Positions 3,796 to 31,206 are shown, numbered from the stretch's first letter. The stretch: DNA of 47,199 bases from Parcubacteria group bacterium LiPW_15 (GCA_007375645.1 VMER01000001.1:403576-450774), one strand, 5' to 3'. Translations and numbers: made by a program. The notes: generated by a model from the sequence alone, not told the origin.

Positions 3796-4287
3796 TTAAG
3801 GTCCTATGCAATATTTTTTCTTCGTAACGTCGGAAGTGTCTACGCCGGTTCCACAATCTATCGTATAGATGGTACCCCTTAATGACGTCTTTTGAAGCGC
3901 GTCGTTTACCTGCTCCATGGTTGCCTTAAGAACATAAACAGTGCCATCGCCGGAAGCGCCGTACTGGTATTTATTGGTCGCATTGTTTATCGGATCATCC
4001 GGGATCTTATTAACTCCGATTCCCGCGGTAGTTATGGCAGTTGCGAAATCAGCCCAGGCCATCTCAGCGTCGGTTCCGCCGGTCGGATATTTGCCGTTTT
4101 TATTATAGAAGAGCTCGAGCGAAGTCTGGATCTGCTTCAAGTCGGAAGCGCGCCGAGAGTCCCTTGCTCTCTGCTGAGCCGGACCGATACCGATAACCAC
4201 GACCGAAGCCAAAATGCCGATAATGGCCACGACGATGAGCATTTCTATGAGGGTGAAACCCTTCCTGCGTGATAATATTTTTTTCAT
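3796..4287 (-). CDS. pilA: Major type IV pilin candidate
   Basis: RRKGFTLIEMLIVVAIIGILASVVV canonical class III signal plus E5. 163 aa, C-terminal Cys pair. Located between pilC and pilD. Confidence 0.85.
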   Translation of the reverse strand: MKKILSRRKGFTLIEMLIVVAIIGILASVVVIGIGPAQQRARDSRRASDLKQIQTSLELFYNKNGKYPTGGTDAEMAWADFATAITTAGIGVNKIPDDPINNATNKYQYGASGDGTVYVLKATMEQVNDALQKTSLRGTIYTIDCGTGVDTSDVTKKKYCIGP

Positions 4288-4336
4288 TTTTTATTATTCC
4301 GACCCTGACTTTTTATTAGTTTTATTATACCACAGC

Positions 4337-5548
4337 TTACTGTATGGAAGATGTGAGCTGATAAAGCGGCAAAAGAATGGAGGCGAAAAGAACCGCGACC
4401 ATAATACCTATGCCTATCATCAAAACCGGCTGGATAAGGTCCACCAGATTACCGACCAGGGTATCGGCTTCTTTTCCGTAAAAATCGGAAATTCTTATAA
4501 GCATCTGATCCATCCGGCCGGTAGTCTCGCCGACCGAGATCATCTGGGACACTAGCGGCGGAAAATGTCTCGGCGCCTTTCCCAGGGCATCCGCGAAATG
4601 CTCTCCTTGGCTCACGTCTTCCGCGACTTGGTGTAAAAGGTCGCGATAAATTACGTTGTCTATGGTCTGCCCCACGATCTCTATCGCCTGGGTTATCGGC
4701 ACACCGCCGCGCAAAAGCATTGAGGTTGTACTCGCGAAACGCGTAAGCGTCAGCGGAACATATATTCTCTTTACTATGGGCATGCGGATCTTTAGGTCGT
4801 CCTTAAAAGCAACGCCCTCCGGGGTCTTCAAATAATCCAAGATCACAATGGCCACTATCGCGAGAAGCAAAACTACTCCTATCCACCATTTGGAAAGAAA
4901 AGTTCCGAGGCCGATAAGGAGCGAGGTAAATGCGGGCAGCTTGACGCCGGACTGCTCAAAGACCGGGACGATCTGCGGAAAAACGAAAGTAAGCATGATG
5001 ATCACAACCACGGCAAAAAGTCCGATCACGATAAACGGATAGATCATGGCCGAGCGGGCCTTGCCGACAAGCGCCGCTTCTTTTTCCAAATAGTCCGCCA
5101 AAAATCCGATAACCTTATCCAAATTTCCGGTAACTTCCGCAGAACGTATCATGCTCACGAAATAAATCGGGAAAATATGGCTCTGACGCTCGAGCGCCTG
5201 GGAAAAAGCCAGACCGGCATCGATATCTTCGCGTATCTGAAGCGCCGCTTCTTTAAGGCCCGGATGCGCGGTTTGATTCTCCAAAGTTTTAACAACCGAA
5301 GTAAGCGGCAACTGCGCTTCCATAAGCACCGCCATTTGACGGGCAAAAATAACCAGGTCTTTTCTTTTTACCCTGCCGAAATAACTCGAAACACGGTCAT
5401 ACCAGCGGACCTTCCCGGTTTCTTCGATGCTTAGGATAAAAAGCTCATGGCCCGTAAGGACGGTTATCGCCGCATCGCGATTAGCCGCATCCACAAAACC
5501 GGTCTGCTCCTCTCCTTCTTTGGTTTTCGCGCGATATTTATACTTCAT
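4337..5548 (-). CDS. pilC: Type IV pilus platform protein (T2SS F family)
   Basis: 403 aa with two T2SSF-like repeats and three TM blocks. Typical PilC length and context. Confidence 0.9.
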   Translation of the reverse strand: MKYKYRAKTKEGEEQTGFVDAANRDAAITVLTGHELFILSIEETGKVRWYDRVSSYFGRVKRKDLVIFARQMAVLMEAQLPLTSVVKTLENQTAHPGLKEAALQIREDIDAGLAFSQALERQSHIFPIYFVSMIRSAEVTGNLDKVIGFLADYLEKEAALVGKARSAMIYPFIVIGLFAVVVIIMLTFVFPQIVPVFEQSGVKLPAFTSLLIGLGTFLSKWWIGVVLLLAIVAIVILDYLKTPEGVAFKDDLKIRMPIVKRIYVPLTLTRFASTTSMLLRGGVPITQAIEIVGQTIDNVIYRDLLHQVAEDVSQGEHFADALGKAPRHFPPLVSQMISVGETTGRMDQMLIRISDFYGKEADTLVGNLVDLIQPVLMIGIGIMVAVLFASILLPLYQLTSSIQ

Positions 5549-20302: not shown

Positions 20303-20569
20303 TTAAGGTTCCGCTTTCCAACCCAAGCTATTGGTTATGCGCTTTTTTAGCTGACCGATAATACTACCGTATTCTTTTATGCTTCCCTCTCTCTTTATGG
20401 CATCAGTTCTGCTCAGGTATGCCTCGTAGTAGACCAGTTTCCATGGCCGACCAACCTTCGTGAAATCACTTCTGCCAAAATTGTGATCTTTCAATCTCTG
20501 CCTTAGGTCAGAGCTATAGCCAACATAAATCAACCCCTCCCTATTTTTTAATAGATAAACGTAAAACAT
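20303..20569 (-). CDS. GIY-YIG nuclease superfamily protein (stand-alone URI domain)
   Basis: FYVYLLKNREGLIYVGYSSDLRQRLKDHN motif. 88 aa. Confidence 0.8.
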   Translation of the reverse strand: MFYVYLLKNREGLIYVGYSSDLRQRLKDHNFGRSDFTKVGRPWKLVYYEAYLSRTDAIKREGSIKEYGSIIGQLKKRITNSLGWKAEP

Positions 20570-20691: not shown

Positions 20692-23600
20692 TTATGTTCC
20701 GGAAGCGTACGCGACGGAATTGACAACCGCAGGAACGACGGTGGCCGGAAGGTTCACAGAGGAACCGGAGCCATCAAGAGCGTTCACGTAGGTTACATCC
20801 GTGGTAGCGTTCACGGTTACAGCCAAGGTCTGGGACACACCATTCGCTCCAGCCGGAGTGTGAGCAAAAGAGTTCACACGCACGTTGAAGGTCTTGGAAG
20901 CGCCAGCGCTCAAGACATAACCGGAAGTTCCGGTACCAATCGTGAAGGTAAAGGTACAAGTACCACCGCTAGTACAAGCTCCAGAAGTAGCAGTACCTTG
21001 TACAACCGCACCAGTAGACGGATCGAAGAGTTTCACATCATCCGCAGCAGCACCGTTGTTGGAGAGGAAGGTCGAAGTCGGCAAGCTACCAGTGATGGTA
21101 AGCTTGACCTGGTTCAACGATACAGATCCAGCATTAGAAGCCGCAAAGGTGATGGTTCCGATGTCGTCAATGGAAGTCTTAGCGCGACCGGAGGTCGAAC
21201 CAAGGCCAGCCACAGACATGGTCATCGCGCTCCTCAACACAGTCTGGGTGTTTCCAACCGGGCTGGACAAAACGTTGGTCGCGCCAGCGTTGGAAGAATT
21301 TCCAAGCGCAGTCACGATAGACGAGGTGGCAGCGTATTCGGTGGAAGTACCAATCAAGAAGGTGCTGGTAGCGTTGTCGGTTGCACCGCCGGAGACGTAA
21401 GAAGCAACATCACCCTTCAAGACCAAAGTCTTGGAAGAAGATTTCGCAACCACAACCGGGGTAGCAAAGTGGAACGCATAGTTGTAACCGGCGCCAGAAG
21501 ACGAAGTCACAAGGTTCGCAGAAGCCACAGCGGAACCAGCCGTTCCGACGGCAGTAGCGCCATCGTACAAGGTGAGGTTACCGAAGGAAGACTTCGTGTT
21601 TGCCGTGTTAGTCGCCACGCGCTGGAAGATTACCAAGTCGGTGATCTTCACGTCCTCAACGTTGGTCGTTTCCGTGAAGCGGAACGAGGCCAAGGAGTTG
21701 CCGGTGGAGCCCATAACGAGCTGACCGGTCGGAGCAGTACCGGAATCGATACCGATCGTGAGGGACGGAGAACCGCCGATGGTCACAACCTGACCAGTCG
21801 CAGCCGTGCAGCTAACGGAGCTGTTCGAAGACGAACCGGTTCCGGTGCAGCTAGACAAAGTCGTAGCGGCGCCGTTCTGGGTTGCGGCATTCGAGAGCAC
21901 GTCGGCATACACGTCAATGATGGTCGTTTGACCAGCCGGAACGGTGAATTGAGTGCCAGAGAAGGTGTAAGAAGTGGTCGCGCTCAAAGTCGAGTACGAA
22001 GTACCGAATTGAGTGGAGCCGATCTTAACAGCCAAGTTCTGGTAGTTCACGTCCGCGCCTGCACCAGTCTGGATAGTAACGTTGGAGATCACCACGCCTT
22101 CCGCCGAAGAGGCGGTCACAGCGTAGGAACCGATCTTCGCGTTAGCAGTGTTCTTGGTGAAGGTCTGAGTACCAACCGCGGAGTTAGCCGCAGTGGTCAC
22201 AGCATTCGCAGCCAAGGACAAGCTGCTTCCGGTTACGGTACCAGTGTTGCTGGTTTGGCTCGAAGTCAAACCCTGCAAGTTGCTGGTGTTGCCAGTTAAA
22301 GCGGCAGTGACGGTAGTGAAAGTCGCGCCAGTCTGGATGTCACCCTTCAAAGACAAGACCCGAGTAGTGTTAGCCGGGATAATGTAGTTGATCGGAGAAC
22401 CAGAGGTGCCGAAACAATCATTGTACACGCCGCCCGCGCTGTAAGCCGCAACGCCAGAACCGGTACAAGTGTTGCTGGAAGGCGGAGTGTTGATGGTCGT
22501 GCCAACTTGGCCGCCAGCATCATCCACCAAGGCAACGTTCTTGATCTGAGTCGTGAGGGTCGAAGTTACGCCAGTGAAAGTCAAGGAGAAATCCAAGAAC
22601 TTCACTTTTACAGCTTCACCAGCCGCGTAGATCTTGAACTTAGCGAGAGTCACGTTGGACTGGCCCTTGGCGAGGTTACCGGTTGGGGTATCGCTAGCCA
22701 AAGAAACGGTCAACTGACCTTGCTGGATGGTTACAACGGCACCAGAACCGCCGTTCACGGTAACCGTGATCGAGCTGTTGTACTGGGTATCAACCGCGTA
22801 AGCATCAAAGGAGTTCAAGAGCTGGAACTGGAAAGTGTAGCTCGGCGAACCCATAACATCGGCGTAAACCTGGAGGTTAGAAGTTCCAGTGTTCAAAACC
22901 GCGTTAGCATTCGTCAAGTCGAAGTACGCATCTCCGCTCGCGTCAACAGAAGTCAAAGTGGAACCCACCTGGGTGCCGTTGACGTAGAGTTTCACGTTCT
23001 GGATGTCGCTCTTGTTAGCGGAACCGGTCACGCGGAACTTCAAGGAAGAAAGCTTCACTTTGGAGTTCGTAACGCTGGCGGACCACTGGGAAACCAAGAC
23101 GTTCTGAGTGCCGGCGAACACAGTGCTGCCGACGGTGGACGAGGTTATCGTCAAACCAGCGAGAGCCGGGTTCGAGACAGTCGAAACAGTCAAGGAGTTA
23201 CCCATGAGCGGGAAAGCTCCAGAAGCGGTGATCGCGGTGTTAGCCGAATCAGCCGCAGTTACATCGCTCGCAGCATTGAGCTTGAAGGAAACGATGTTTC
23301 CGGCAGTAGCGCCAGTCACATCAACCGCAAGCCAAAGTTTCCTGGTCTGACCAGCTCCCACGGACAAGCCGAGGTTGGAGAAGGTGATAACACCCTGGTT
23401 CAAGGAAACGTACTGGGCGACAACCTTGCCGTTTTCAACCAAGTAGGCTCCACCAATGGAGCTATCGGAAACGACACCGGTCTTCGTGAATTTAACCTGG
23501 TTAAGGTTGACAGCGCCCGAGTTACCGGCAGTGAAATTCACAGCCATAACCGGAACGCGGCCAGCGCCGTTAAGCAGGGATCCGGCAACCGGGTTGTCAG

Positions 23601-24078
23601 AGGCCAAGCCTACGGACAAACCAGAAGACGGAACGACAACTCCGCCACCGCCTCCGGAAGGAGGGGTAACAACGCCGCTCATGGAGTTAACATAAGCGCG
23701 GGTCTTAGGACCGAAGTAGCCAGCAGCCGGGGAAATTCCTACAGAAGCCTGAAACTTTCCCAAGGCAGCTTGGGTCATAGAACCGAAGTAGCCAGTCGGG
23801 GCAGCAATGGCGAGGAATCCCTTGTTGATCAACATCTGCTGAAGAGCAGTTACGTCAGCTCCTTTACTACCAAGGGTGAGGTCCGTGGTGAAGTTGTAGG
23901 AACCGGTGGAACCGCTGCCAGAGCCGAGTTGAGATTGCAGCATCTGGATTTGGGCCAGAAGAGCTGCGATCTGCGCCTGCAAGTCCGCAGAGGACTGTGC
24001 AAAAGCAGACGGGGTCGCGCCAACGATACCAACTAAAGTGGCAACGGAGAGCGCAACCGAAATCATTTTCTTACTCAT
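20692..24078 (-). CDS. Large cell-surface (S-layer-like) protein with an N-terminal peptidoglycan-binding domain and repeated beta-sandwich-like modules
   Basis: Signal peptide MSKKMISVALSVATLVGIVGATPSAFA, a coiled-coil segment, then a PG_binding_1-like segment (GSKGADVTALQQMLINKGF...GYFGSMTQAALGKFQ...GYFGPKTRAYV). After that about 900 aa are rich in T/S/A/G/V, with recurring NVxL..F..TG......I.NVKLY..G..VG modules. Confidence 0.7.
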   Translation of the reverse strand: MSKKMISVALSVATLVGIVGATPSAFAQSSADLQAQIAALLAQIQMLQSQLGSGSGSTGSYNFTTDLTLGSKGADVTALQQMLINKGFLAIAAPTGYFGSMTQAALGKFQASVGISPAAGYFGPKTRAYVNSMSGVVTPPSGGGGGVVVPSSGLSVGLASDNPVAGSLLNGAGRVPVMAVNFTAGNSGAVNLNQVKFTKTGVVSDSSIGGAYLVENGKVVAQYVSLNQGVITFSNLGLSVGAGQTRKLWLAVDVTGATAGNIVSFKLNAASDVTAADSANTAITASGAFPLMGNSLTVSTVSNPALAGLTITSSTVGSTVFAGTQNVLVSQWSASVTNSKVKLSSLKFRVTGSANKSDIQNVKLYVNGTQVGSTLTSVDASGDAYFDLTNANAVLNTGTSNLQVYADVMGSPSYTFQFQLLNSFDAYAVDTQYNSSITVTVNGGSGAVVTIQQGQLTVSLASDTPTGNLAKGQSNVTLAKFKIYAAGEAVKVKFLDFSLTFTGVTSTLTTQIKNVALVDDAGGQVGTTINTPPSSNTCTGSGVAAYSAGGVYNDCFGTSGSPINYIIPANTTRVLSLKGDIQTGATFTTVTAALTGNTSNLQGLTSSQTSNTGTVTGSSLSLAANAVTTAANSAVGTQTFTKNTANAKIGSYAVTASSAEGVVISNVTIQTGAGADVNYQNLAVKIGSTQFGTSYSTLSATTSYTFSGTQFTVPAGQTTIIDVYADVLSNAATQNGAATTLSSCTGTGSSSNSSVSCTAATGQVVTIGGSPSLTIGIDSGTAPTGQLVMGSTGNSLASFRFTETTNVEDVKITDLVIFQRVATNTANTKSSFGNLTLYDGATAVGTAGSAVASANLVTSSSGAGYNYAFHFATPVVVAKSSSKTLVLKGDVASYVSGGATDNATSTFLIGTSTEYAATSSIVTALGNSSNAGATNVLSSPVGNTQTVLRSAMTMSVAGLGSTSGRAKTSIDDIGTITFAASNAGSVSLNQVKLTITGSLPTSTFLSNNGAAADDVKLFDPSTGAVVQGTATSGACTSGGTCTFTFTIGTGTSGYVLSAGASKTFNVRVNSFAHTPAGANGVSQTLAVTVNATTDVTYVNALDGSGSSVNLPATVVPAVVNSVAYASGT

Positions 24079-24603: not shown

Positions 24604-25299
24604 TTATGCGGAGACCGCAACCGCCACCCGATAAGAGGTCGCCGGGCCGCTCTGCCCTACCCTCTCAATAAGTCCTTGTTCGGACAAACGTTCTAAATCA
24701 TATCGCAAGGTTCTTTCACTCACCTCCGGAAATCCCTCTATAATATCTTTCATTCGGCAATTGCCGGATTGCCGAATTCTTTGCAGAATTGCCGATTGCC
24801 GAATTGCCGCTTGCGGGGAAACTTGGCGCTCGGTTTGCGGCTCGGCTGGCTCCACGGCCTCTTCGGAATTAGTTATGGCCTCAAGCTCTTTATTTATCAC
24901 CTCCGGCGGAATCTCCTTCTTTTGAATGTCAGCCGTAAGCTTAGTCCCCCGTTCGGTTCCACTAGAAAAATTCAATTTGATGGGTTCAATGTTTCCGGCA
25001 ATGGCATTATATCCGGCAATTGCCGAATTAAGATTGCCGATTTCTAAAACCAACATTTCCACGTTGCTCTGATGGATAAGCCCGGTGTCTCCGCCAAGGC
25101 GGAGATAGTATTCCAAAATTTTGGCTTCGGCGTTTGCCGCATTCATATTGCCGTAAATTGCCGAATCGAAAAGCGAAAGGCAATGGTTTTCCAGGTATCC
25201 CGCAATCGGACGATTGCCGATATTGCCGGATAGCCGGAACATCGCATAAGCGATCTCATAAGCCTTCTTTTCGATTTGCCGAATTTGTTCGTTTTTCAT
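24604..25299 (-). CDS. DeoR-like winged-helix transcriptional regulator with a helical N-terminal domain
   Basis: C-terminal wHTH ILQRIRQSGNCRMKDIIEGFPEVSERTLRYDLERLSEQGLIERVG. The N-terminal 110 aa are predicted helical and four-helix-bundle-like by eye. Confidence 0.7.
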   Translation of the reverse strand: MKNEQIRQIEKKAYEIAYAMFRLSGNIGNRPIAGYLENHCLSLFDSAIYGNMNAANAEAKILEYYLRLGGDTGLIHQSNVEMLVLEIGNLNSAIAGYNAIAGNIEPIKLNFSSGTERGTKLTADIQKKEIPPEVINKELEAITNSEEAVEPAEPQTERQVSPQAAIRQSAILQRIRQSGNCRMKDIIEGFPEVSERTLRYDLERLSEQGLIERVGQSGPATSYRVAVAVSA

Positions 25300-25350
25300 T
25301 GCCGGATTAGTACGCCCAGTATATCCCTTGCCGGATTATGGAGTCAATAA

Positions 25351-25379
25351 TTGACCGAGGGTTAAATACCTGATAAATT
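25351..25379 (+). promoter_or_regulatory. Promoter of cassette A1
   Basis: TTGACC, 17-nt spacer, TAAATT with TGa extended -10. Homologous in sequence to the A2 promoter, including the TTGTCGG just downstream. Confidence 0.55.
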
Positions 25380-25419
25380 GTCGGTAGCGCTGAATTCCAA
25401 AAAGAGGAGGAGGAAAGTC

Positions 25420-25650
25420 ATGCAGACCGTGAACAAGCTCATCGACGTCAAGCCCTGGTGCCTGAACGCCAAGCCGGGCGATGCGAGGGTCTTCTCTGTC
25501 AGAGAGGAAGTCACACAGGAAACAGCCTCGGCATTCATCCACAAAGTGAACCAGGAACGCGGTCGGATCAACAACGTCTGGGTGGTCGTCGAATCGTTCG
25601 CCTGCGCTCCCGAACCGACGACCAGGATCCGCGTCCACTGCTCGCGCTGA
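25420..25650 (+). CDS. Small protein A1 (76 aa), unknown family, paralog of A2
   Basis: ATG preceded by AGAGGAGGAGGAAAGTC. Shares WCL.AKPG...VF.V....TQ..ASAF and a C-terminal R(I/V)HC with A2. Confidence 0.65.
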   Translation: MQTVNKLIDVKPWCLNAKPGDARVFSVREEVTQETASAFIHKVNQERGRINNVWVVVESFACAPEPTTRIRVHCSR

Positions 25651-25681
25651 CCCCCATATCTCTTCAATCTCCAGCCCTTCC

Positions 25682-25706
25682 GCCGCCCTCCCGGGCGGCC
25701 TTTTTT
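25682..25706 (+). terminator. Intrinsic terminator (cassette type)
   Basis: GCCGCCC-TCCC-GGGCGGC followed by CTTTTTT. Confidence 0.8.
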
Positions 25707-25734
25707 ATTCTTTGCCGGATTGCCAAGCCAGTAA

Positions 25735-25763
25735 TTGACCAAAATTAAAATACTTGGTAGTTT
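25735..25763 (+). promoter_or_regulatory. Promoter of cassette A2
   Basis: TTGACC, 17-nt spacer, TAGTTT with TGg extended -10. Confidence 0.55.
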
Positions 25764-25796
25764 GTCGGAGGTATTGAAGCTAGGGAAGGAGAAGGA

Positions 25797-26042
25797 ATGG
25801 TGAACATCGTGAAGACCATCGCCGGAGCCGAACTCTGGTGCCTGAGCGCCAAACCGGGCGCCATGGAAGTCTTTTACGTGAACGCGCGCATCACCCAAGC
25901 CGAGGCTTCGGCTTTCGCTGGCCAGACGAACAAGAAGCGCGCCGAGATTCGCATCGAAGGCCGCATCACGGCGACCGTCGAAAGGACAGTGAGCGTTCTC
26001 GGCGGCTCGACGACCCAGCTCCGCATCCACTGTTTGTTCTGA
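25797..26042 (+). CDS. Small protein A2 (81 aa), paralog of A1
   Basis: SD GGGAAGGAGAAGGA abuts the ATG. Alignment with A1 is clear by eye. Confidence 0.65.
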   Translation: MVNIVKTIAGAELWCLSAKPGAMEVFYVNARITQAEASAFAGQTNKKRAEIRIEGRITATVERTVSVLGGSTTQLRIHCLF

Positions 26043-26060
26043 GCCTCTCACCCTCCCTCT

Positions 26061-26096
26061 GCCGCCTCCCCAGGGCGGCCTTTTTTTATTTTTTTC
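26061..26096 (+). terminator. Intrinsic terminator (cassette type)
   Basis: GCCGCC-TCCCCAG-GGCGGC followed by a long T run. Confidence 0.8.
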
Positions 26097-26123
26097 AAAA
26101 GTTTTGCCGAATTGCCGAATTAA

Positions 26124-26151
26124 TTGACAATCCGGCAATCCCGAATATCCT
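26124..26151 (+). promoter_or_regulatory. Putative promoter of cassette B
   Basis: TTGACA, 16-nt spacer, TATCCT. The -10 is weak. A CGGCAA motif copy sits inside the spacer. Confidence 0.35.
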
Positions 26152-26182
26152 TATACCCAGTAACGCGGAAAGGAGTGCGAAA

Positions 26183-26467
26183 ATGCAACGCGCGCTAAGA
26201 ATTCGGCTCAAAGGCAGTCCAGTCGAAATCTGGCGCCTTGCGAACAACCGGGATCTGATACCCGAGAGGGTCATTGAGGAATTCAGCGACAAGTCCTTCT
26301 ATCTGAACCCGAACTGCGAAAGGTGGATCGAAGGCGGAACCCTCTATATCTTATTCCCCCGGATAGACGCTCTCCCGGGGGAAAAAGCTCTCCAGGGCAA
26401 GCTGGTCGCTTCCCTCCCTGCCGTGTGTGTTCAGGAGCTAGGTTTCGTATATCGCCCCAATGGCTGA
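26183..26467 (+). CDS. Small protein B1 (94 aa), unknown family, paralog of B2
   Basis: ATG at 26183 after GGAAAGGAG. The track's longer 25838 start runs through A2 and a terminator. Shares YLN..CE.W...G..Y..FP...AL.GE....GKLV with B2. Confidence 0.65.
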   Translation: MQRALRIRLKGSPVEIWRLANNRDLIPERVIEEFSDKSFYLNPNCERWIEGGTLYILFPRIDALPGEKALQGKLVASLPAVCVQELGFVYRPNG

Positions 26468-26482
26468 TTGAAAGGAGCACCG

Positions 26483-26764
26483 ATGCAATATTTCTTCAGG
26501 ATCCAGGTCGCCGACACGTTCGCAAACGCTTTGGCCTTCGCTGAGAAGCATCCGACCCTCGGCAGGGTCACCGAAGCCATCTGCGAGGACACGATCTACC
26601 TGAACCAGGATTGCGAGATGTGGGTGACCAGCGGAATCGTCTACGTCTTCTTCCCGAATGTGGAGGCCCTTTCCGGGGAGACCTCCAGGCGGGGCAAGCT
26701 GGTCATCCTCCTCCGCACCGAGGAAATGCGCGAGTGCGGGCATGTCTGGCGTTTCGACGTCTGA
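26483..26764 (+). CDS. Small protein B2 (93 aa), paralog of B1
   Basis: ATG at 26483 after GAAAGGAG. 15 nt downstream of the B1 stop. Confidence 0.65.
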   Translation: MQYFFRIQVADTFANALAFAEKHPTLGRVTEAICEDTIYLNQDCEMWVTSGIVYVFFPNVEALSGETSRRGKLVILLRTEEMRECGHVWRFDV

Positions 26765-26778
26765 GCGCCCCTCTCTCT

Positions 26779-26804
26779 GCCGCCCTCCCGGGCGGCCTTT
26801 TTTT
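26779..26804 (+). terminator. Intrinsic terminator (cassette type)
   Basis: GCCGCCC-TCCC-GGGCGGC followed by CTTTTTTT. Same sequence as 25682-25706. Confidence 0.8.
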
Positions 26805-27030
26805 CCAAAATTTATGGCGCTCCGAATACCTTGCCCGAATAGTTATGCACAGCTTGACACCTATAGGTATTTTGACGAAAAAAGTTGCCGGATGTCCGGC
26901 CCAGCCCACGACTTGTTGATAAAGAATGTTGTTCCTTATTTATAGTGAGAGTAAACCCCCACACCTAATGGGAAATTTATCCTCAGATGGGTTCTTGTCC
27001 CCCATTAGGTGTGGGGGTAAACTTTAGAAA

Positions 27031-27561
27031 ATGACTGAAAACGAGGACTCGCTTCTCTCCCAGCAAGTCGCCCCAGAACTGAAAACCAATCGCCGCAAAA
27101 TGAAGATCGCTTTTATAGCGATAATTTTTTTGGCGCTCTTGGCGCTTATCGGAAACGGTGTCTACAGATATTGGCTGGCCATTAACTCGGCCGCGCAATA
27201 CGAAAAAGATTTAGCGGCGACCATGGCTGCAGAAAGAGAAGCAAAAATGGCCGATACCTATGGCGGCTCTACCCCGGCCGAAACGCTTCAACTATATATA
27301 GATGCACTCAAGAAGAATGATTTTGAATTAGCGAGTAAATACTTTATAGAGAAAAACCGAGATGCACAACATAAAAAAATAGTTGCCTTTGGTGAAAAAA
27401 AACTTATAACTTATGCAGGCAACCTAGAGATTTTATATAAAAATATACTCAAAGGAAGCGGCGCCTACTCTGACGATAAGCTTGAATTCGTAACCGACAA
27501 GCCATTTTTTGCAGACTTTGCATTATACCCCAATAATATTTGGAAAATAACAGAAATATAA
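27031..27561 (+). CDS. Membrane-anchored hypothetical protein
   Basis: 176 aa with TM IAFIAIIFLALLALIGNGVY. AT-rich. The start could instead be the internal MKIAF. Confidence 0.5.
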   Translation: MTENEDSLLSQQVAPELKTNRRKMKIAFIAIIFLALLALIGNGVYRYWLAINSAAQYEKDLAATMAAEREAKMADTYGGSTPAETLQLYIDALKKNDFELASKYFIEKNRDAQHKKIVAFGEKKLITYAGNLEILYKNILKGSGAYSDDKLEFVTDKPFFADFALYPNNIWKITEI

Positions 27562-27564
27562 AAG

Positions 27565-30500
27565 ATGTTCCGCAAAGCGTTTGCGGTTTCCTTTTTTCTT
27601 TTTCTCATCGCTGGTCGCGCCCTAGCTTATAACGACCGGACAACCCATCCCGCGCTAACCGGAGAAATTTTAGATTTCGTCGGCGGGTTCACCGCCGAAG
27701 AACGGGGTTGGATAGTTGAAGGAAGCAAGCTGGAAGACTTCGCCCCTCGCTGGATAAACCATTTTTATGACCCTATAAACAATACTAGCTGGACCGGCGC
27801 TAAAGCCAGTGGAATCCCCGCAGACACATTGCGAACCATGGCCGCCATAGGCGCAACCGATCCCCTCCCCGCCACAAGCTGGATAAAAGGATGCAACACA
27901 CAATCCGCTTATTTCGCGAACGGCGGAAACCGCGTCTGGGAAAGCGCCCTACAGGCCTATTCTGAGGGCAATCTTAAAGAAGCCTACACGACCCTCGGCC
28001 ACATTTTGCACATTGAAGAAGATCTGTCCGTTCCAGACCATACCCGCGACGACACTCACGCCCAAAATCTCGGCGGGGATGATGGTAGCCCCTATGAGCA
28101 ATATGCGAGCAAATACACGCCCGATACCATAAAATCATTAAATATCGCGGGGAGTTTAAAATCCTCAGGCATGTCACCGGCGAAATTCAGTTCGCCCGAA
28201 GAATATCTTGTGGCAATGGCCGTTTATTCCAACAAATATTTCTTTTCCAAGGATACTATAAATGACCCGCGTTACCCGGAACCAAAAATAATTGCTGAAA
28301 ACGATACTTTCGTTTATGGAAAAGATGAAAATGGCACGAATTTCCCAATTGCCTCGGTATCGAATTTCGCCGACAACAACGAAAATTATTTTTTGAGGAA
28401 CGTATCACCATACTCCTCCATCCTCGACTCCTATTTCTATCGCTTATCTAGACAAGCGGTCCTAAATGGCGCAGGGCTTGTCACCCTTTTTAAAAAACAG
28501 GCTGAAGACGCCAAGGTTAACCAAGAATTTTTTGTGGACGATAGACATACGCTTGCCAAAATTGCCTGCAAAACCGGAGATGTAGCCGGCAAGTTCACCA
28601 CCATGGGACTTATTTCCTATATCGGCCAAGGGGCAAGTTCTGCCTTGGGCCAAATCGCCGACACCGCCAGTTCCGCTTGGAACTTTTTTGTCGGCTTATT
28701 CAAAAAATCCTCGCCTCAATCCACCGAAATCGCCGACAATACCGAAGGGGTCGGCACATCTCTCCCGCCCAACACACAAGACTTCCTCACAAATAATACG
28801 GACCTCACGCTTCCTCCGACACTCCCTCCTCCGCCGAAACCGACGGCTCCGAAAGCGACGACCACTCTGCCCGTAGCACCGACCAGCACCGCACCGACAA
28901 TCGCCGCAACCACAACCTCGGCAGCTAAGTTAGCACTAAACAAGCTGCCCGTCCTCCCTCCTCCCCCGAAACCCACGAATCCAAACGGATCAACCGGTGG
29001 AGGCGGCGGTACCGTTGGCGTTCAACCCACCCCAACGTCAACCGATATACAAGCGACAACCACGCCCACGTCTCTCGCAGATCATGTATTAATAAGCGAA
29101 ATATTTTTCAATGCCGACGGTTCCGATGCCGGGAAAGAGTTTGTGGAACTTTATAATCCATCCGATTCCGCAAAAAACCTGGATGGTTGCGCGCTAAAAT
29201 ATATTGCGGAAAATTCTACAACCACTCATTCGCTTGCGACAATCCGCGCGACCACTACCGAAATTTCTATAATTCCTGCGCATGGTTTTTTGTTGCTCGG
29301 CTTCGGAGGGTATGATTCGCAAAATTATGGAGGTAGGGCAGCCGACGTAACCCGCACAGCGTCCGTTCCCAACGGCGAAGATGTTCATAGCACCCCACAG
29401 AAAATTAAGCTTGGTTTCTTTGACGAAACCAAGCAGGAAATTGATTCTGTTGTCTATGATAAAAATTCTATAACCGCACCCGGGGAAAGTTTGGAGCGCT
29501 TAGCGTTTGACGGCACATGTAAGCCCGCAACCGGTTTGGGAGAATTTTTAGGAAATGGCTGCTCAACCGGCGAAAAACAATTTGAATCCAAACGCATTCC
29601 CCGCCCCCAAAATTCCACGAGTCTTCCCGAACCTCGCCAAGCCCCAACCACACCAACACTCGCCGGCGGGACAACTTCTATTGCAAACTATTTCCCGGAT
29701 ACTCTGAAAATTAGTTTTGAGTGGAAAAATTCTCTTGATTTTTCCGGTACCTCCACGGAAATAACGTATAAACTTTTTGACGCATCAAGCTCGACCTCTC
29801 TACTCGTCTCAACCTCGACCGCCACCTCCACCGAAAGAAATATTGGCGAGGTCGGCAGATCCTATGATCATGCCTTGGTTGCTGAAGATCGAGATGGCAT
29901 GCCCTCCGCCACAACCACCATGACTACAAATGTTCCCGGATTCGTGGATAAAATATTTTTCTACCGCAACCCGCGTTCTTCGAGCACACCGAATAGCGTT
30001 AATTTGGAGGTGCGATATTCCAAGCGTCCGTTTATCCCCCAGCTCCTTTCGGGCGGACTCAATTGGCAAGGACTACTTTTTTATTCTAATCGCGCGGCAA
30101 ATAATAAAAATGGAAGTCTTACGCTCTCAGGAAACTATGCCCCGACGGATGCCAGCGGAACGATTCCCGTAACTACTCGCGGTCCAGCCTTATTCGGCCT
30201 GTCTCCGGAAAATTCCAAAGGTTTCGGTCCCGGCCTCTACAATTTTAGTTTCTTCCTCCCCGAGGAAGATGGCCGGCTGGTTCTTGGGGCGACGCTTCCA
30301 GCGGAAGCCACCTCTACGGATTACGCCACAATCGCTTATTATGACGCCTTAAATACCGGTGGCATCGCTCTCCCGCCCGGAGAAAACGACTTTGGCCTGA
30401 TTGCGACCGACGCAAGAAAAATAATGTTGGCTGAATTGCCACCGGAACAAACTCCGCCTAGTAGGCCAGAAAATATTTCATTAAACTTTGACGAAAACCT

Positions 30501-31206
30501 GACTAAGCTGAATTTATTCTGGTCGACATCTACCGATGCAGATAGTCTTGATTCGGAAATAACATACGAAACCAACTTTTCTACATCTACAGAACTCTCT
30601 ACTTCGACCTGGACATTGCAAGGAAAAACTGATTCCGCCTCAATAGATGTCATCCCAGGAAATACTTATATGGTAGGCGCGAGAGCAATCGATGATTTTG
30701 GCAACGCTTCTGAAGCCAATACCATATTTTGGAATTTCCCTGATGGGTATAAACCCGCAGTTATGAGTGGGTCACTCACTGCGGCTTCTCAAGATTTTAT
30801 CGCGCAAACAGACGCGAATGTTAGCGAAATCAACATCTATACAACTGCTTTTTCAAAACGGCGTGACTGGCCACCTCCGCCGATAAATCCTTGCGGCATA
30901 TCATTTTTTGAGGTGAATACCAGTAGCACAATTTCTCTCCTTGGCTCGTCAAACACATACGAAGATGAAGCTTGCGCCGGAGCTCCTCTCAAATTTACTT
31001 TTTCTTCGCCGATTCCGCTCCTCGCCGGCCACACCTATCGCTGGCAATTCAACTTAAGCGGAGGAAGTAATTATTTTGGCTATCCAACCGTTAAATTCTA
31101 TGGTCGAACCGAGAATAACTTGGGTGGACCTTTCAGCGACCCGTCGCTCGCCAGCGCAAAATTCAGTCTTAAAGATACATCTGGAGGCATTGTGATCGAT
31201 AACTGA
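27565..31206 (+). CDS. Giant secreted multidomain protein: zinc-dependent phospholipase C/P1-nuclease-like N-terminal domain, Pro/Thr linker, lamin-tail domain (LTD), FN3-like modules
   Basis: Signal peptide MFRKAFAVSFFLFLIAGRALA. LGHILHIEEDLSVPDHTRDD resembles the Zn-binding H..D...P.H motif. PPPPKPT linkers. LISEIFFNADGSDAGKEFVELYNPSDSAKNLDGCAL is a typical LTD signature. PSRPENISLNFDENLTKLNLFWSTSTD...GNTYMVGARAIDDFGN is FN3-like. Confidence 0.6.
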   Translation: MFRKAFAVSFFLFLIAGRALAYNDRTTHPALTGEILDFVGGFTAEERGWIVEGSKLEDFAPRWINHFYDPINNTSWTGAKASGIPADTLRTMAAIGATDPLPATSWIKGCNTQSAYFANGGNRVWESALQAYSEGNLKEAYTTLGHILHIEEDLSVPDHTRDDTHAQNLGGDDGSPYEQYASKYTPDTIKSLNIAGSLKSSGMSPAKFSSPEEYLVAMAVYSNKYFFSKDTINDPRYPEPKIIAENDTFVYGKDENGTNFPIASVSNFADNNENYFLRNVSPYSSILDSYFYRLSRQAVLNGAGLVTLFKKQAEDAKVNQEFFVDDRHTLAKIACKTGDVAGKFTTMGLISYIGQGASSALGQIADTASSAWNFFVGLFKKSSPQSTEIADNTEGVGTSLPPNTQDFLTNNTDLTLPPTLPPPPKPTAPKATTTLPVAPTSTAPTIAATTTSAAKLALNKLPVLPPPPKPTNPNGSTGGGGGTVGVQPTPTSTDIQATTTPTSLADHVLISEIFFNADGSDAGKEFVELYNPSDSAKNLDGCALKYIAENSTTTHSLATIRATTTEISIIPAHGFLLLGFGGYDSQNYGGRAADVTRTASVPNGEDVHSTPQKIKLGFFDETKQEIDSVVYDKNSITAPGESLERLAFDGTCKPATGLGEFLGNGCSTGEKQFESKRIPRPQNSTSLPEPRQAPTTPTLAGGTTSIANYFPDTLKISFEWKNSLDFSGTSTEITYKLFDASSSTSLLVSTSTATSTERNIGEVGRSYDHALVAEDRDGMPSATTTMTTNVPGFVDKIFFYRNPRSSSTPNSVNLEVRYSKRPFIPQLLSGGLNWQGLLFYSNRAANNKNGSLTLSGNYAPTDASGTIPVTTRGPALFGLSPENSKGFGPGLYNFSFFLPEEDGRLVLGATLPAEATSTDYATIAYYDALNTGGIALPPGENDFGLIATDARKIMLAELPPEQTPPSRPENISLNFDENLTKLNLFWSTSTDADSLDSEITYETNFSTSTELSTSTWTLQGKTDSASIDVIPGNTYMVGARAIDDFGNASEANTIFWNFPDGYKPAVMSGSLTAASQDFIAQTDANVSEINIYTTAFSKRRDWPPPPINPCGISFFEVNTSSTISLLGSSNTYEDEACAGAPLKFTFSSPIPLLAGHTYRWQFNLSGGSNYFGYPTVKFYGRTENNLGGPFSDPSLASAKFSLKDTSGGIVIDN

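Follow-up and report, generated by a model that had tools for sequence, protein, structure and literature searches.

Introduction

Intragenic and auxiliary operators, among them lacO2 in lacZ, galOI in galE, the PurR sites in purR and purB, and the sites through which DeoR loops DNA, strengthen repression through looping or as a roadblock. MetJ, a protein with a ribbon-helix-helix fold and a co-repressor, binds cooperatively to tandem 8-bp met boxes in groups of two to five or more units. The systems N15 repA/ori and P1 repL/oriL are similar to that of O and ori-lambda in phage lambda. In lambda, the array of sites lies inside the coding sequence of its own binder, such that coding and binding fall on the same bases (PMC4488673, PMC5043065), and it is composed of four 19-bp iterons at one place beside an AT-rich region, serving replication of a mobile genome. 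The omega protein (ParB-pSM) of pSM19035 coats its arrays cooperatively, and the arrays double as a centromere, with at least four contiguous repeats needed (PMC9499535). Here, we describe a chromosomal locus of Parcubacteria group bacterium LiPW_15, contained within a stretch of 47,199 nucleotides that was analyzed at its full length (GCA_007375645.1 VMER01000001.1:403576-450774; the window), in which copies of a short motif, TTGCCG(G/A)AT, run through the gene for a regulator with a winged helix-turn-helix (wHTH) domain and through its promoter. The motif array is a selected DNA feature that is inseparably linked to this regulator gene family, and we propose that the gene body is an array of the regulator's own half-sites. 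No description of the motif, or of this regulator family of the Candidate Phyla Radiation (CPR), was found in the literature searched.

A motif array within the regulator gene

Exact TTGCCG or CGGCAA hexamers occur 82 times in the window, compared with 36.5 ± 6.1 in dinucleotide-preserving shuffles, none of 100 of which reached 82. Twenty-three of the 82 fall within 24755-26890, which is 4.5% of the window (binomial P = 1.2e-12), giving a density of 10.8/kb there and 1.3/kb in the rest of the window. The extended form TTGCCGRAT is present in 18 copies where 1.5 are expected, and 16 of these lie within 24752-26893 (P = 4e-20); the remaining two are singles at 23580 (minus strand) and 38838 (plus strand), both within unrelated genes. 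The original prediction, which was made from the sequence alone and proposed an operator or iteron array for a DeoR-like regulator, had listed the positions of these hexamers, and all of them are exact. Both of the 18-bp palindromes that it reported are present (ATTCGGCAATTGCCGGAT at 24752-24769 and ATCCGGCAATTGCCGAAT at 25011-25028), as are the 16 copies inside the coding sequence at 24604-25299 (minus strand) and one further copy, at 25299-25304, which overlaps the start codon by one base. Tandem copies in the window are spaced 7 to 9 bp apart, and the gene and its motif groups are as follows.

24604-25299, minus strand: regulator coding sequence, 231 amino acids
24752-24809: core array of six hexamers within 58 bp, with the palindrome ATTCGGCAATTGCCGGAT; encodes AAIRQSAILQRIRQSGNCRM (residues 164-183, first wHTH helix)
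24996-25042: group of four hexamers (24996 reverse complement, 25014 reverse complement, 25020, 25034) including the palindrome ATCCGGCAATTGCCGAAT; encodes IGNLNSAIAGYNAIAGN (end of the four-helix bundle)
25134-25166: group of three hexamers (25134, 25148, 25158) in the coding sequence of the N-terminal domain
25214-25231: pair of hexamers, two copies 9 bp apart, coding for SGNIGN
25276-25284: single copy, coding for I6-R7-Q8 (ATT CGG CAA)
25299-25307: TTGCCGGAT copy that abuts and overlaps the regulator ATG
26885-26893, plus strand: lone TTGCCGGAT copy about 146 bp upstream of a 176-amino-acid gene at 27031, overlapping a hairpin; its membership of the system is uncertain

Conservation of the array among orthologues

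We compared 84 orthologous loci from Paceibacteria (27 to 85% protein identity), comprising 80 GTDB species representatives and four metagenome contigs; the peptide patterns used to retrieve them exclude the motif, and retrieval thus introduces no bias in codon choice. The regulator coding sequence carries a median of 11 hexamers (range, 3 to 33), with median expectations of 2.4 by within-gene permutation of synonymous codons and 1.6 by resampling the codons of flanking genes, and at 81 of the 84 loci the observed count was above that of every one of 300 within-gene permutations. Pooled densities are 14.8/kb in the coding sequence, 8.4/kb in the 200 bp upstream, and about 1.3/kb in the flanks (about 430 kb of flanks from 76 orthologous loci). 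An unbiased 6-mer screen of the 76 distant loci returned ATTGCC (12.9-fold) and CGGCAA (10-fold) as the top words in coding sequences, and the upstream list is headed by the motif and the -10 box TATACT. The consensus aTTGCCG(G/A)AT(t) is found in both coding sequences and upstream regions.

The array is also evident in codon choice. The share of motif-forming codons at conserved residues, compared with the background share of the same codons, is as follows.

R167: CGG, 78% (background, 21%)
Q168: CAA, 93% (background, 30%)
S169: TCG, 79% (background, 27%)
A170: GCA, 76% (background, 15%)
S178: TCC, 74% (background, 19%)
G179: GGC, 82% (background, 40%)
N180: AAT, 96% (background, 41%)
L190: TTG, 86% (background, 24%)
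D192: GAT, 94% (background, 55%)

Over the core array region as a whole, CGG is used at 78 to 85%, CAA at 93 to 95%, and AAT at 96%, against backgrounds of 21 to 41%. The motif is read in all three frames, with ATT-CGG-CAA giving IRQ, tCC-GGC-AAT giving SGN, and AAT-TCG-GCA-ATT giving NSAI; the palindrome GGC-AAT-TGC-CGa is read as GNCR, and IGN and LPD are further readings. Five copies of the core array (segment IRQSAIL..IRQSGNCR) are kept in 46 to 63 of 81 loci, the GNCR site in 55 of 81, and the NSAIA site, in the group at 24996-25042, in 41 of 81. Altogether, the motif occupies 209 distinct alignment positions, 124 of them in a single lineage only, and sites are therefore gained and lost as well as kept. 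From these patterns, motif copies appear to be kept by selection at synonymous sites, and on linker sequence, in about 80 species.

The largest array is that of L061 (regulator at 3884-4714), in which the gene contains 33 copies and CGGCAA is repeated through the unconstrained linker, passing from frame to frame. In this orthologue, the linker and an N-terminal extension consist of low-complexity peptides (GN, RQ, SA, SGN) that are the plain translation of tandem CGGCAA units. This locus suggests that the array can expand by slippage with the reading frame staying open.

Motif sites at promoters

Sites also sit in repressor-type positions at the promoter of the regulator gene and at those of its small neighbors. 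The copy at 25328 was originally described as lying 23 bp from the TTGACC box of promoter A1, which is correct, but that account is incomplete, as the same copy lies within the 18-nucleotide spacer of the regulator's own divergent promoter. With this copy in the spacer and the 25299 copy at the ATG, the regulator gene has putative operators at its own promoter, which would act in repression. The regulator start has no Shine-Dalgarno sequence, and the leader is therefore short or absent. The arrangement recurs in distant orthologues, in the form TTGACTT-TTGCCGcaTTGCCGgatTATACT-TTGCCGcATG, with an operator-like filling of the spacer and a near-leaderless start, and their TATACT-TTGCCGcATG layout matches the copy at 25299-25307. 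At least one site is present between -70 and +5 in 46 of 79 loci.

25318-25347, minus strand: predicted regulator promoter, TTGACT at 25347-25342, 18-nucleotide spacer, TATACT at 25323-25318; TTGCCGGAT copy at 25328-25336 in the spacer
25351-25379, plus strand: promoter A1, TTGACC, 17 nucleotides, TAAATT; divergent, for the small open reading frame sA1
25420-25650, plus strand: sA1, small orphan gene, 76 amino acids, GC content 0.60; followed by a terminator at 25682-25699
25706-25768, plus strand: promoter A2, a 63-nucleotide duplicate, 73% identical to 25322-25384; TTGCCGGATTGCCA at 25712-25725
25797-26042, plus strand: sA2, small orphan gene, 81 amino acids, paralogue of sA1 (36% identity); followed by a terminator at 26061-26079
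26104-26151, plus strand: promoter B, TTGACA at 26124, 16 nucleotides, TATCCT
26183-26467, plus strand: sB1, small orphan gene, 94 amino acids
26483-26764, plus strand: sB2, 93 amino acids, paralogue of sB1 (34% identity); terminator at 26779-26796

The -35 boxes of A1 and of the regulator promoter stand back to back in one palindrome, GTCAATAATTGAC (25342-25356), an element that is also found in L001 and L003. The duplicated promoter A2 keeps the motif, with its site 23 bp upstream of TTGACC at 25735; the 23-bp offsets from copy to TTGACC box noted originally (25328 to 25351 and 25712 to 25735) are accurate, as are the three promoter B copies (26104, 26112, and 26133 in reverse complement) around the -35 TTGACA at 26124. 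In promoter B, the -35 box is preceded by the tandem pair TTGCCGAATTGCCGAAT, and the inverted copy (26130-26138) abuts it, within the spacer, and this layout, TTGACAATCCGGCAAT, is conserved in L001 and L005.

The four small genes have a GC content of 0.55 to 0.61, compared with 0.45 for the regulator, strong Shine-Dalgarno sequences, and conserved Cys residues, and none has a Pfam or NCBIfam match. Homologues of these orphans are confined to the closest relatives (L001-L006); no indexed homologue was found for sB1, and sA2 has weak matches to repeated segments of proteins of 600 to 1760 amino acids. Near-identical intrinsic terminators (GCCGCC(C/T)CCC(G/A)GGGCGGC plus a T-run), at 25671-25706, 26051-26086, and 26769-26804, close the sA1, sA2, and sB1-sB2 units, respectively. 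The small-gene cassettes look as if they had been duplicated together with promoter and terminator.

The regulator protein

The regulator belongs to a family of at least 380 members, all from Patescibacteria/Paceibacteria metagenomes, which are annotated at most as 'DeoR family' or as hypothetical. An AlphaFold2 (AF2) model built with 84 homologues (predicted local distance difference test score [pLDDT], 84) consists of a four-helix bundle (residues 2-101; pLDDT >90), a disordered linker (approximately 102-160), and a C-terminal winged helix (162-225). The sole Pfam family match is to PF08220 (HTH_DeoR) at residues 167-214 (E = 1.1e-9), covering about 50 C-terminal residues, and PF08220 is matched in 83 of the 84 family members. 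In canonical DeoR the helix-turn-helix is N-terminal. The DeoRC domain (PF00455) is absent from the window protein and from the best 25 families listed for the 84 relatives (E <= 1), and the regulator scores 14 to 22 bits against NCBIfam DeoR equivalogs with cut-offs of 244 to 351. The winged helix thus bears out part of the 'DeoR-like' label given originally, but because the DeoRC domain is absent and the helix-turn-helix is C-terminal, the regulator is not a canonical DeoR.

A PDB profile search with the regulator gave no meaningful match, and the N-terminal domain has no sequence-level Pfam match in any of the 84 members. With Foldseek, the modelled N-terminal domain resembles S23/23S-IVS proteins (2rld, 2gsc) and Avd (4dwl, 8ub7), the accessory protein of diversity-generating retroelements (DGRs), with TM-target of 0.72 to 0.80 and root-mean-square deviations of 1.6 to 3.4. 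The C-terminal domain falls among wHTH repressors, with the centromere binder AspA (5k5q) one of many likenesses. Avd is a pentamer, and pentameric assembly is a feature of the Avd/S23 proteins (PMC6182149); by likeness of fold the N-terminal bundle is probably an oligomerization module, possibly pentameric like Avd. The regulator differs from these proteins in its fusion to a wHTH, in an N-terminal domain that is not basic, and in having no reverse transcriptase or DGR context; the fusion of an Avd-like four-helix bundle to a wHTH is a domain architecture not described before.

The arrangement of the sites bears on how such a protein could be engaged. Among neighboring copies, the commonest arrangements are direct repeats with a spacing of 8 bp (102 cases) or 7 bp (55 cases), and head-to-head pairing at 6 bp, CGGCAATTGCCG, accounts for a further 55 cases. 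The units are very short and occur in both orientations, which argues for independent DNA-binding domains on a flexible tether, and the geometry agrees with the modelled succession of bundle, linker, and wHTH. Beyond the regulator gene and its promoter, tandem pairs are almost absent within ±4 kb (81 loci), and none occurs at the three loci for which ±10 kb was covered. Both the recognition helix, SERT[LI]RYDL, and the motif are invariant, and a comparison for helix-motif covariation finds no variation on either side.

A probable multivalent autoregulator and its alternatives

We favor the interpretation, to which we assign a probability of roughly 0.6, that the regulator is multivalent and controls its own gene, the body of which is a selected array of half-sites for the encoded protein. 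The half-site, (A/T)TTGCCG(G/A)AT(T), would be read by the winged-helix protein encoded at 24604-25299, and several flexibly tethered DNA-binding domains would occupy clusters of half-sites in either orientation. The oligomer would load cooperatively onto promoter and gene body, where it would block initiation by occluding the promoter and elongation by acting as a roadblock or by looping, and the outcome would be a tight, switch-like, and cis-acting negative autoregulation. The gene-body array may also hold the regulator with high avidity, as a sink, and thereby set the amount left free for weaker targets, which in the lineage of the window would include promoters A1, A2, and B of the four orphan small genes. 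In a more far-reaching version, a multivalent, possibly pentameric, protein on 10 to 30 half-sites spread over all three frames of its own open reading frame would form a self-referential module and the single nucleoprotein landmark of each Paceibacteria chromosome, a dosage- or replication-coupled titration device or a centromere/organizer beyond autorepression, with the conserved peptides IRQS, SGNCR, NSAIA, and LPD partly dictated by the operator; we regard this version as possible but doubtful.

The proposal of an operator array for the encoded regulator has come through the two sequence-based checks (oligomer bias and codon choice) among the three refuting conditions suggested with it. 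Several observations weigh against the autoregulator. The motif is assigned to the wHTH protein by co-location, from which we infer binding. In three low-GC (38%) lineages, L073, L081, and L083, the regulator, the recognition helix, and the peptide IRQSAIL persist although most motif copies are gone; the protein can therefore do without the array. Their promoters have no TTGCCG copies, and no substitute AT-rich motif is evident, as judged from their top 6-mers only. The hexamer is biased toward the coding strand (628 CGGCAA and 276 TTGCCG), which a symmetric DNA site does not predict; we attribute this bias, putatively, to which peptides are tolerated. Oligomerization is proposed from a fold resemblance with Foldseek E-values of only about 3e-3; PF05635 (23S_rRNA_IVP) has no match in residues 1-160 of the window protein and is absent from the best 25 families listed for the 84 members, and the N-terminal domain of the window protein differs from Avd in not being basic. 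Finally, the cluster survey covers the locus flanks, within ±4 to 10 kb. A scan of metagenome contigs for TTGCCGNNTTGCCGRAT returned at least 120 loci, almost all of them in unrelated contigs, high-GC or from the gut, that matched by chance, and among the matches listed only L180 has the regulator; the scan has no bearing on the regulon. The low-GC loci (regulator at about 4000-4700) are natural 'array-less' controls.

Those same lineages speak to the simplest alternative, that the repeats have no function at the DNA level and reflect codon preference for GN, IAG, and RQS peptides or a genome-wide oligomer bias. Several copies do encode residues that are conserved in the family (R167, Q168, N180, C181, and R182), but L073 and L083 encode IRQSAIL with AGA-CAG-TCA-GCT, and this depletion of the motif under the same peptide, together with codon skews of 2- to 5-fold over background elsewhere, argues that peptide and DNA motif are separable and that the motif is under selection of its own in most of the class. 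The observed counts exceed both synonymous nulls in at least 81 of 84 loci, three frames are used, positions turn over between lineages, and the linker is filled with copies, such that codon choice for a conserved repetitive peptide is not the cause; nor is a general oligomer bias, with a background of about 1.3/kb in window and flanks against 14.8/kb in the coding sequence. Intergenic copies exist, and homologues are not devoid of them, many having own-promoter-spacer and start-codon sites. The permutation nulls, codon tables, low-GC lineages, and flank density together rule out such an artifact, and we give it next to no weight. Action of the repeats in mRNA, where the transcribed CGGCAA repeats would be bound by a protein or an antisense RNA to control translation or stability, would account for the strand bias and for L061, in which nearly all 33 copies are sense-oriented, and the N-terminal fold is shared with Avd, which works with RNA (PMC6182149). 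However, the bundle lacks the basic character of Avd, Rfam gives only a sub-threshold microRNA match for the region, and both the palindromes and the two orientations are conserved, as in the GNCR site. Many copies, moreover, are untranscribed, lying upstream of -35 boxes, in spacers, or after terminators, and sites in untranscribed DNA argue for action on DNA; we consider an mRNA function very unlikely.

A different factor, another regulator or an RNA polymerase-associated protein, could bind the motif, with the wHTH gene simply its most heavily targeted gene. TTGCCG does resemble a -35 hexamer (TTGACA, four of six positions), a gene for a sigma factor of the extracytoplasmic function (ECF)-like type lies a few kilobases away in conserved synteny, and co-location is what joins protein and motif. 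This explanation is nonetheless quite unlikely, as array and gene family are found together in about 80 species, also at loci with a different upstream gene order, palindromes and tandem half-sites suit a multimeric helix-turn-helix protein better than a sigma factor, and sites in the spacer of the own promoter are typical of autorepressors. Alternatively, array and protein may form mainly a structural landmark of the chromosome, either a centromere-like organizer or an initiator with its origin, and autoregulation would be a side effect. There is one dense array per locus, always linked to the binder gene, with almost no other cluster within ±4 to 10 kb; its short 7- to 8-bp units in direct and inverted orientation are like the omega heptads, which are operator and parS at once (PMC9499535), ori-lambda lies in the O gene (PMC4488673, PMC5043065), and AspA is among the likenesses of the wHTH. 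However, no ParA, actin-like, or tubulin-like gene is found among the Pfam-labelled neighbors in L001-L004 and L205-L207, and synteny reveals no conserved partner; the regulator's neighbors in the window are small orphan genes and giant cell-surface proteins, with no ParABS or type I-III partition cassette. There is no Rep or lambda O Pfam match. The cumulative GC skew does not turn at the locus, no AT-rich unwinding region lies beside the array, and the context is one of chromosomal housekeeping genes, on which grounds we rejected a replication origin. Likewise, the absence of homologues from IMG/VR viral contigs led us to reject a phage or mobile origin. Sites placed exactly in promoter spacers are the signature of a repressor, and we consider a landmark function unlikely.

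Locus context

The window is ordinary chromosome, with gyrB, nusG, L11, tmk, a sigma factor, and type IV pilus genes. The gene order regulator, giant PG_binding_1 protein, HU, and ECF-like sigma factor is kept across Paceibacteria at about 40% regulator identity. Giant predicted surface proteins stand on both sides of the regulator, a PG_binding_1 protein of 1128 amino acids (20692-24078, minus strand) and a lamin-tail protein of 1213 amino acids (27565-31206, plus strand). Between the giant PG_binding_1 gene and the ECF-like sigma gene is a free-standing open reading frame of 88 amino acids with a GIY-YIG nuclease domain (20303-20569, minus strand), which has a counterpart of 95 amino acids directly downstream of the giant gene in a distant relative (L207, 15000-15287). 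In the distant loci of the L205-L207 set, genes for an aminotransferase, HtrA, ClpB, and GalU lie upstream of the regulator. The conserved ClpB and HtrA genes had suggested a heat-shock regulator, an idea that we rejected, as there are no motif clusters at those promoters.

Downstream of the small genes, a 23-nucleotide inverted repeat (26950-27023; 91% complementary, 28-nucleotide loop; AGTAAACCCCCACACCTAATGGG / CCCATTAGGTGTGGGGGTAAACT) ends 8 nucleotides before the ATG of the gene at 27031, which encodes a membrane-anchored protein of 176 amino acids. The inverted repeat has no family match in Rfam, and it may be a 5' untranslated region structure or a protein site.

Implications and comparison with known systems

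The locus is an exceptionally clear natural instance of two codes in one stretch of DNA, with an operator half-site that has persisted at synonymous positions in three frames while a whole bacterial class diverged, and the operator even shapes the linker and motif peptides of the protein that probably reads it. It offers a conserved pair of regulator and site in Paceibacteria, where recognizable transcription factors are few and there are no genetics. With a motif that is short, a protein that is small and soluble, and a gene that can be recoded, the system provides a testable handle on autoregulation, titration, and chromosome organization in CPR bacteria.

The original prediction knew of no described system built in this way. 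The design is indeed unusual, but partial precedents exist, among them lambda O/ori-lambda, with which the regulator gene shares an array of the (here presumed) binder's sites inside the binder's own coding sequence. Instead of four iterons at one place, however, the regulator has 10 to 30 half-sites over the whole of a chromosomal open reading frame and its promoter, conserved across a class, and it has neither origin features nor viral homologues. With omega, the likeness is in very short repeats (7 bp there, 7 to 8 bp here) in contiguous direct and inverted arrays at promoters, including that of the binder itself; omega differs in being a ribbon-helix-helix dimer with intergenic arrays, whereas the regulator combines a winged helix with a bundle, and no ParA is seen. 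The 8-bp repeat period is shared with MetJ, but the met boxes are in promoters of regulon genes, with none in the metJ coding sequence. The lac, gal, PurR, and DeoR operators number one or two sites rather than an array of 10 to 30 and leave no class-wide synonymous or protein imprint; a DeoR-type helix-turn-helix is common to DeoR and the regulator. By analogy, then, the architecture of the units seems closest to the omega heptads and the MetJ boxes, and their placement in the open reading frame closest to lambda O/ori-lambda, and the system as a whole would resemble an autorepressor with auxiliary intragenic operators, pushed to an extreme.

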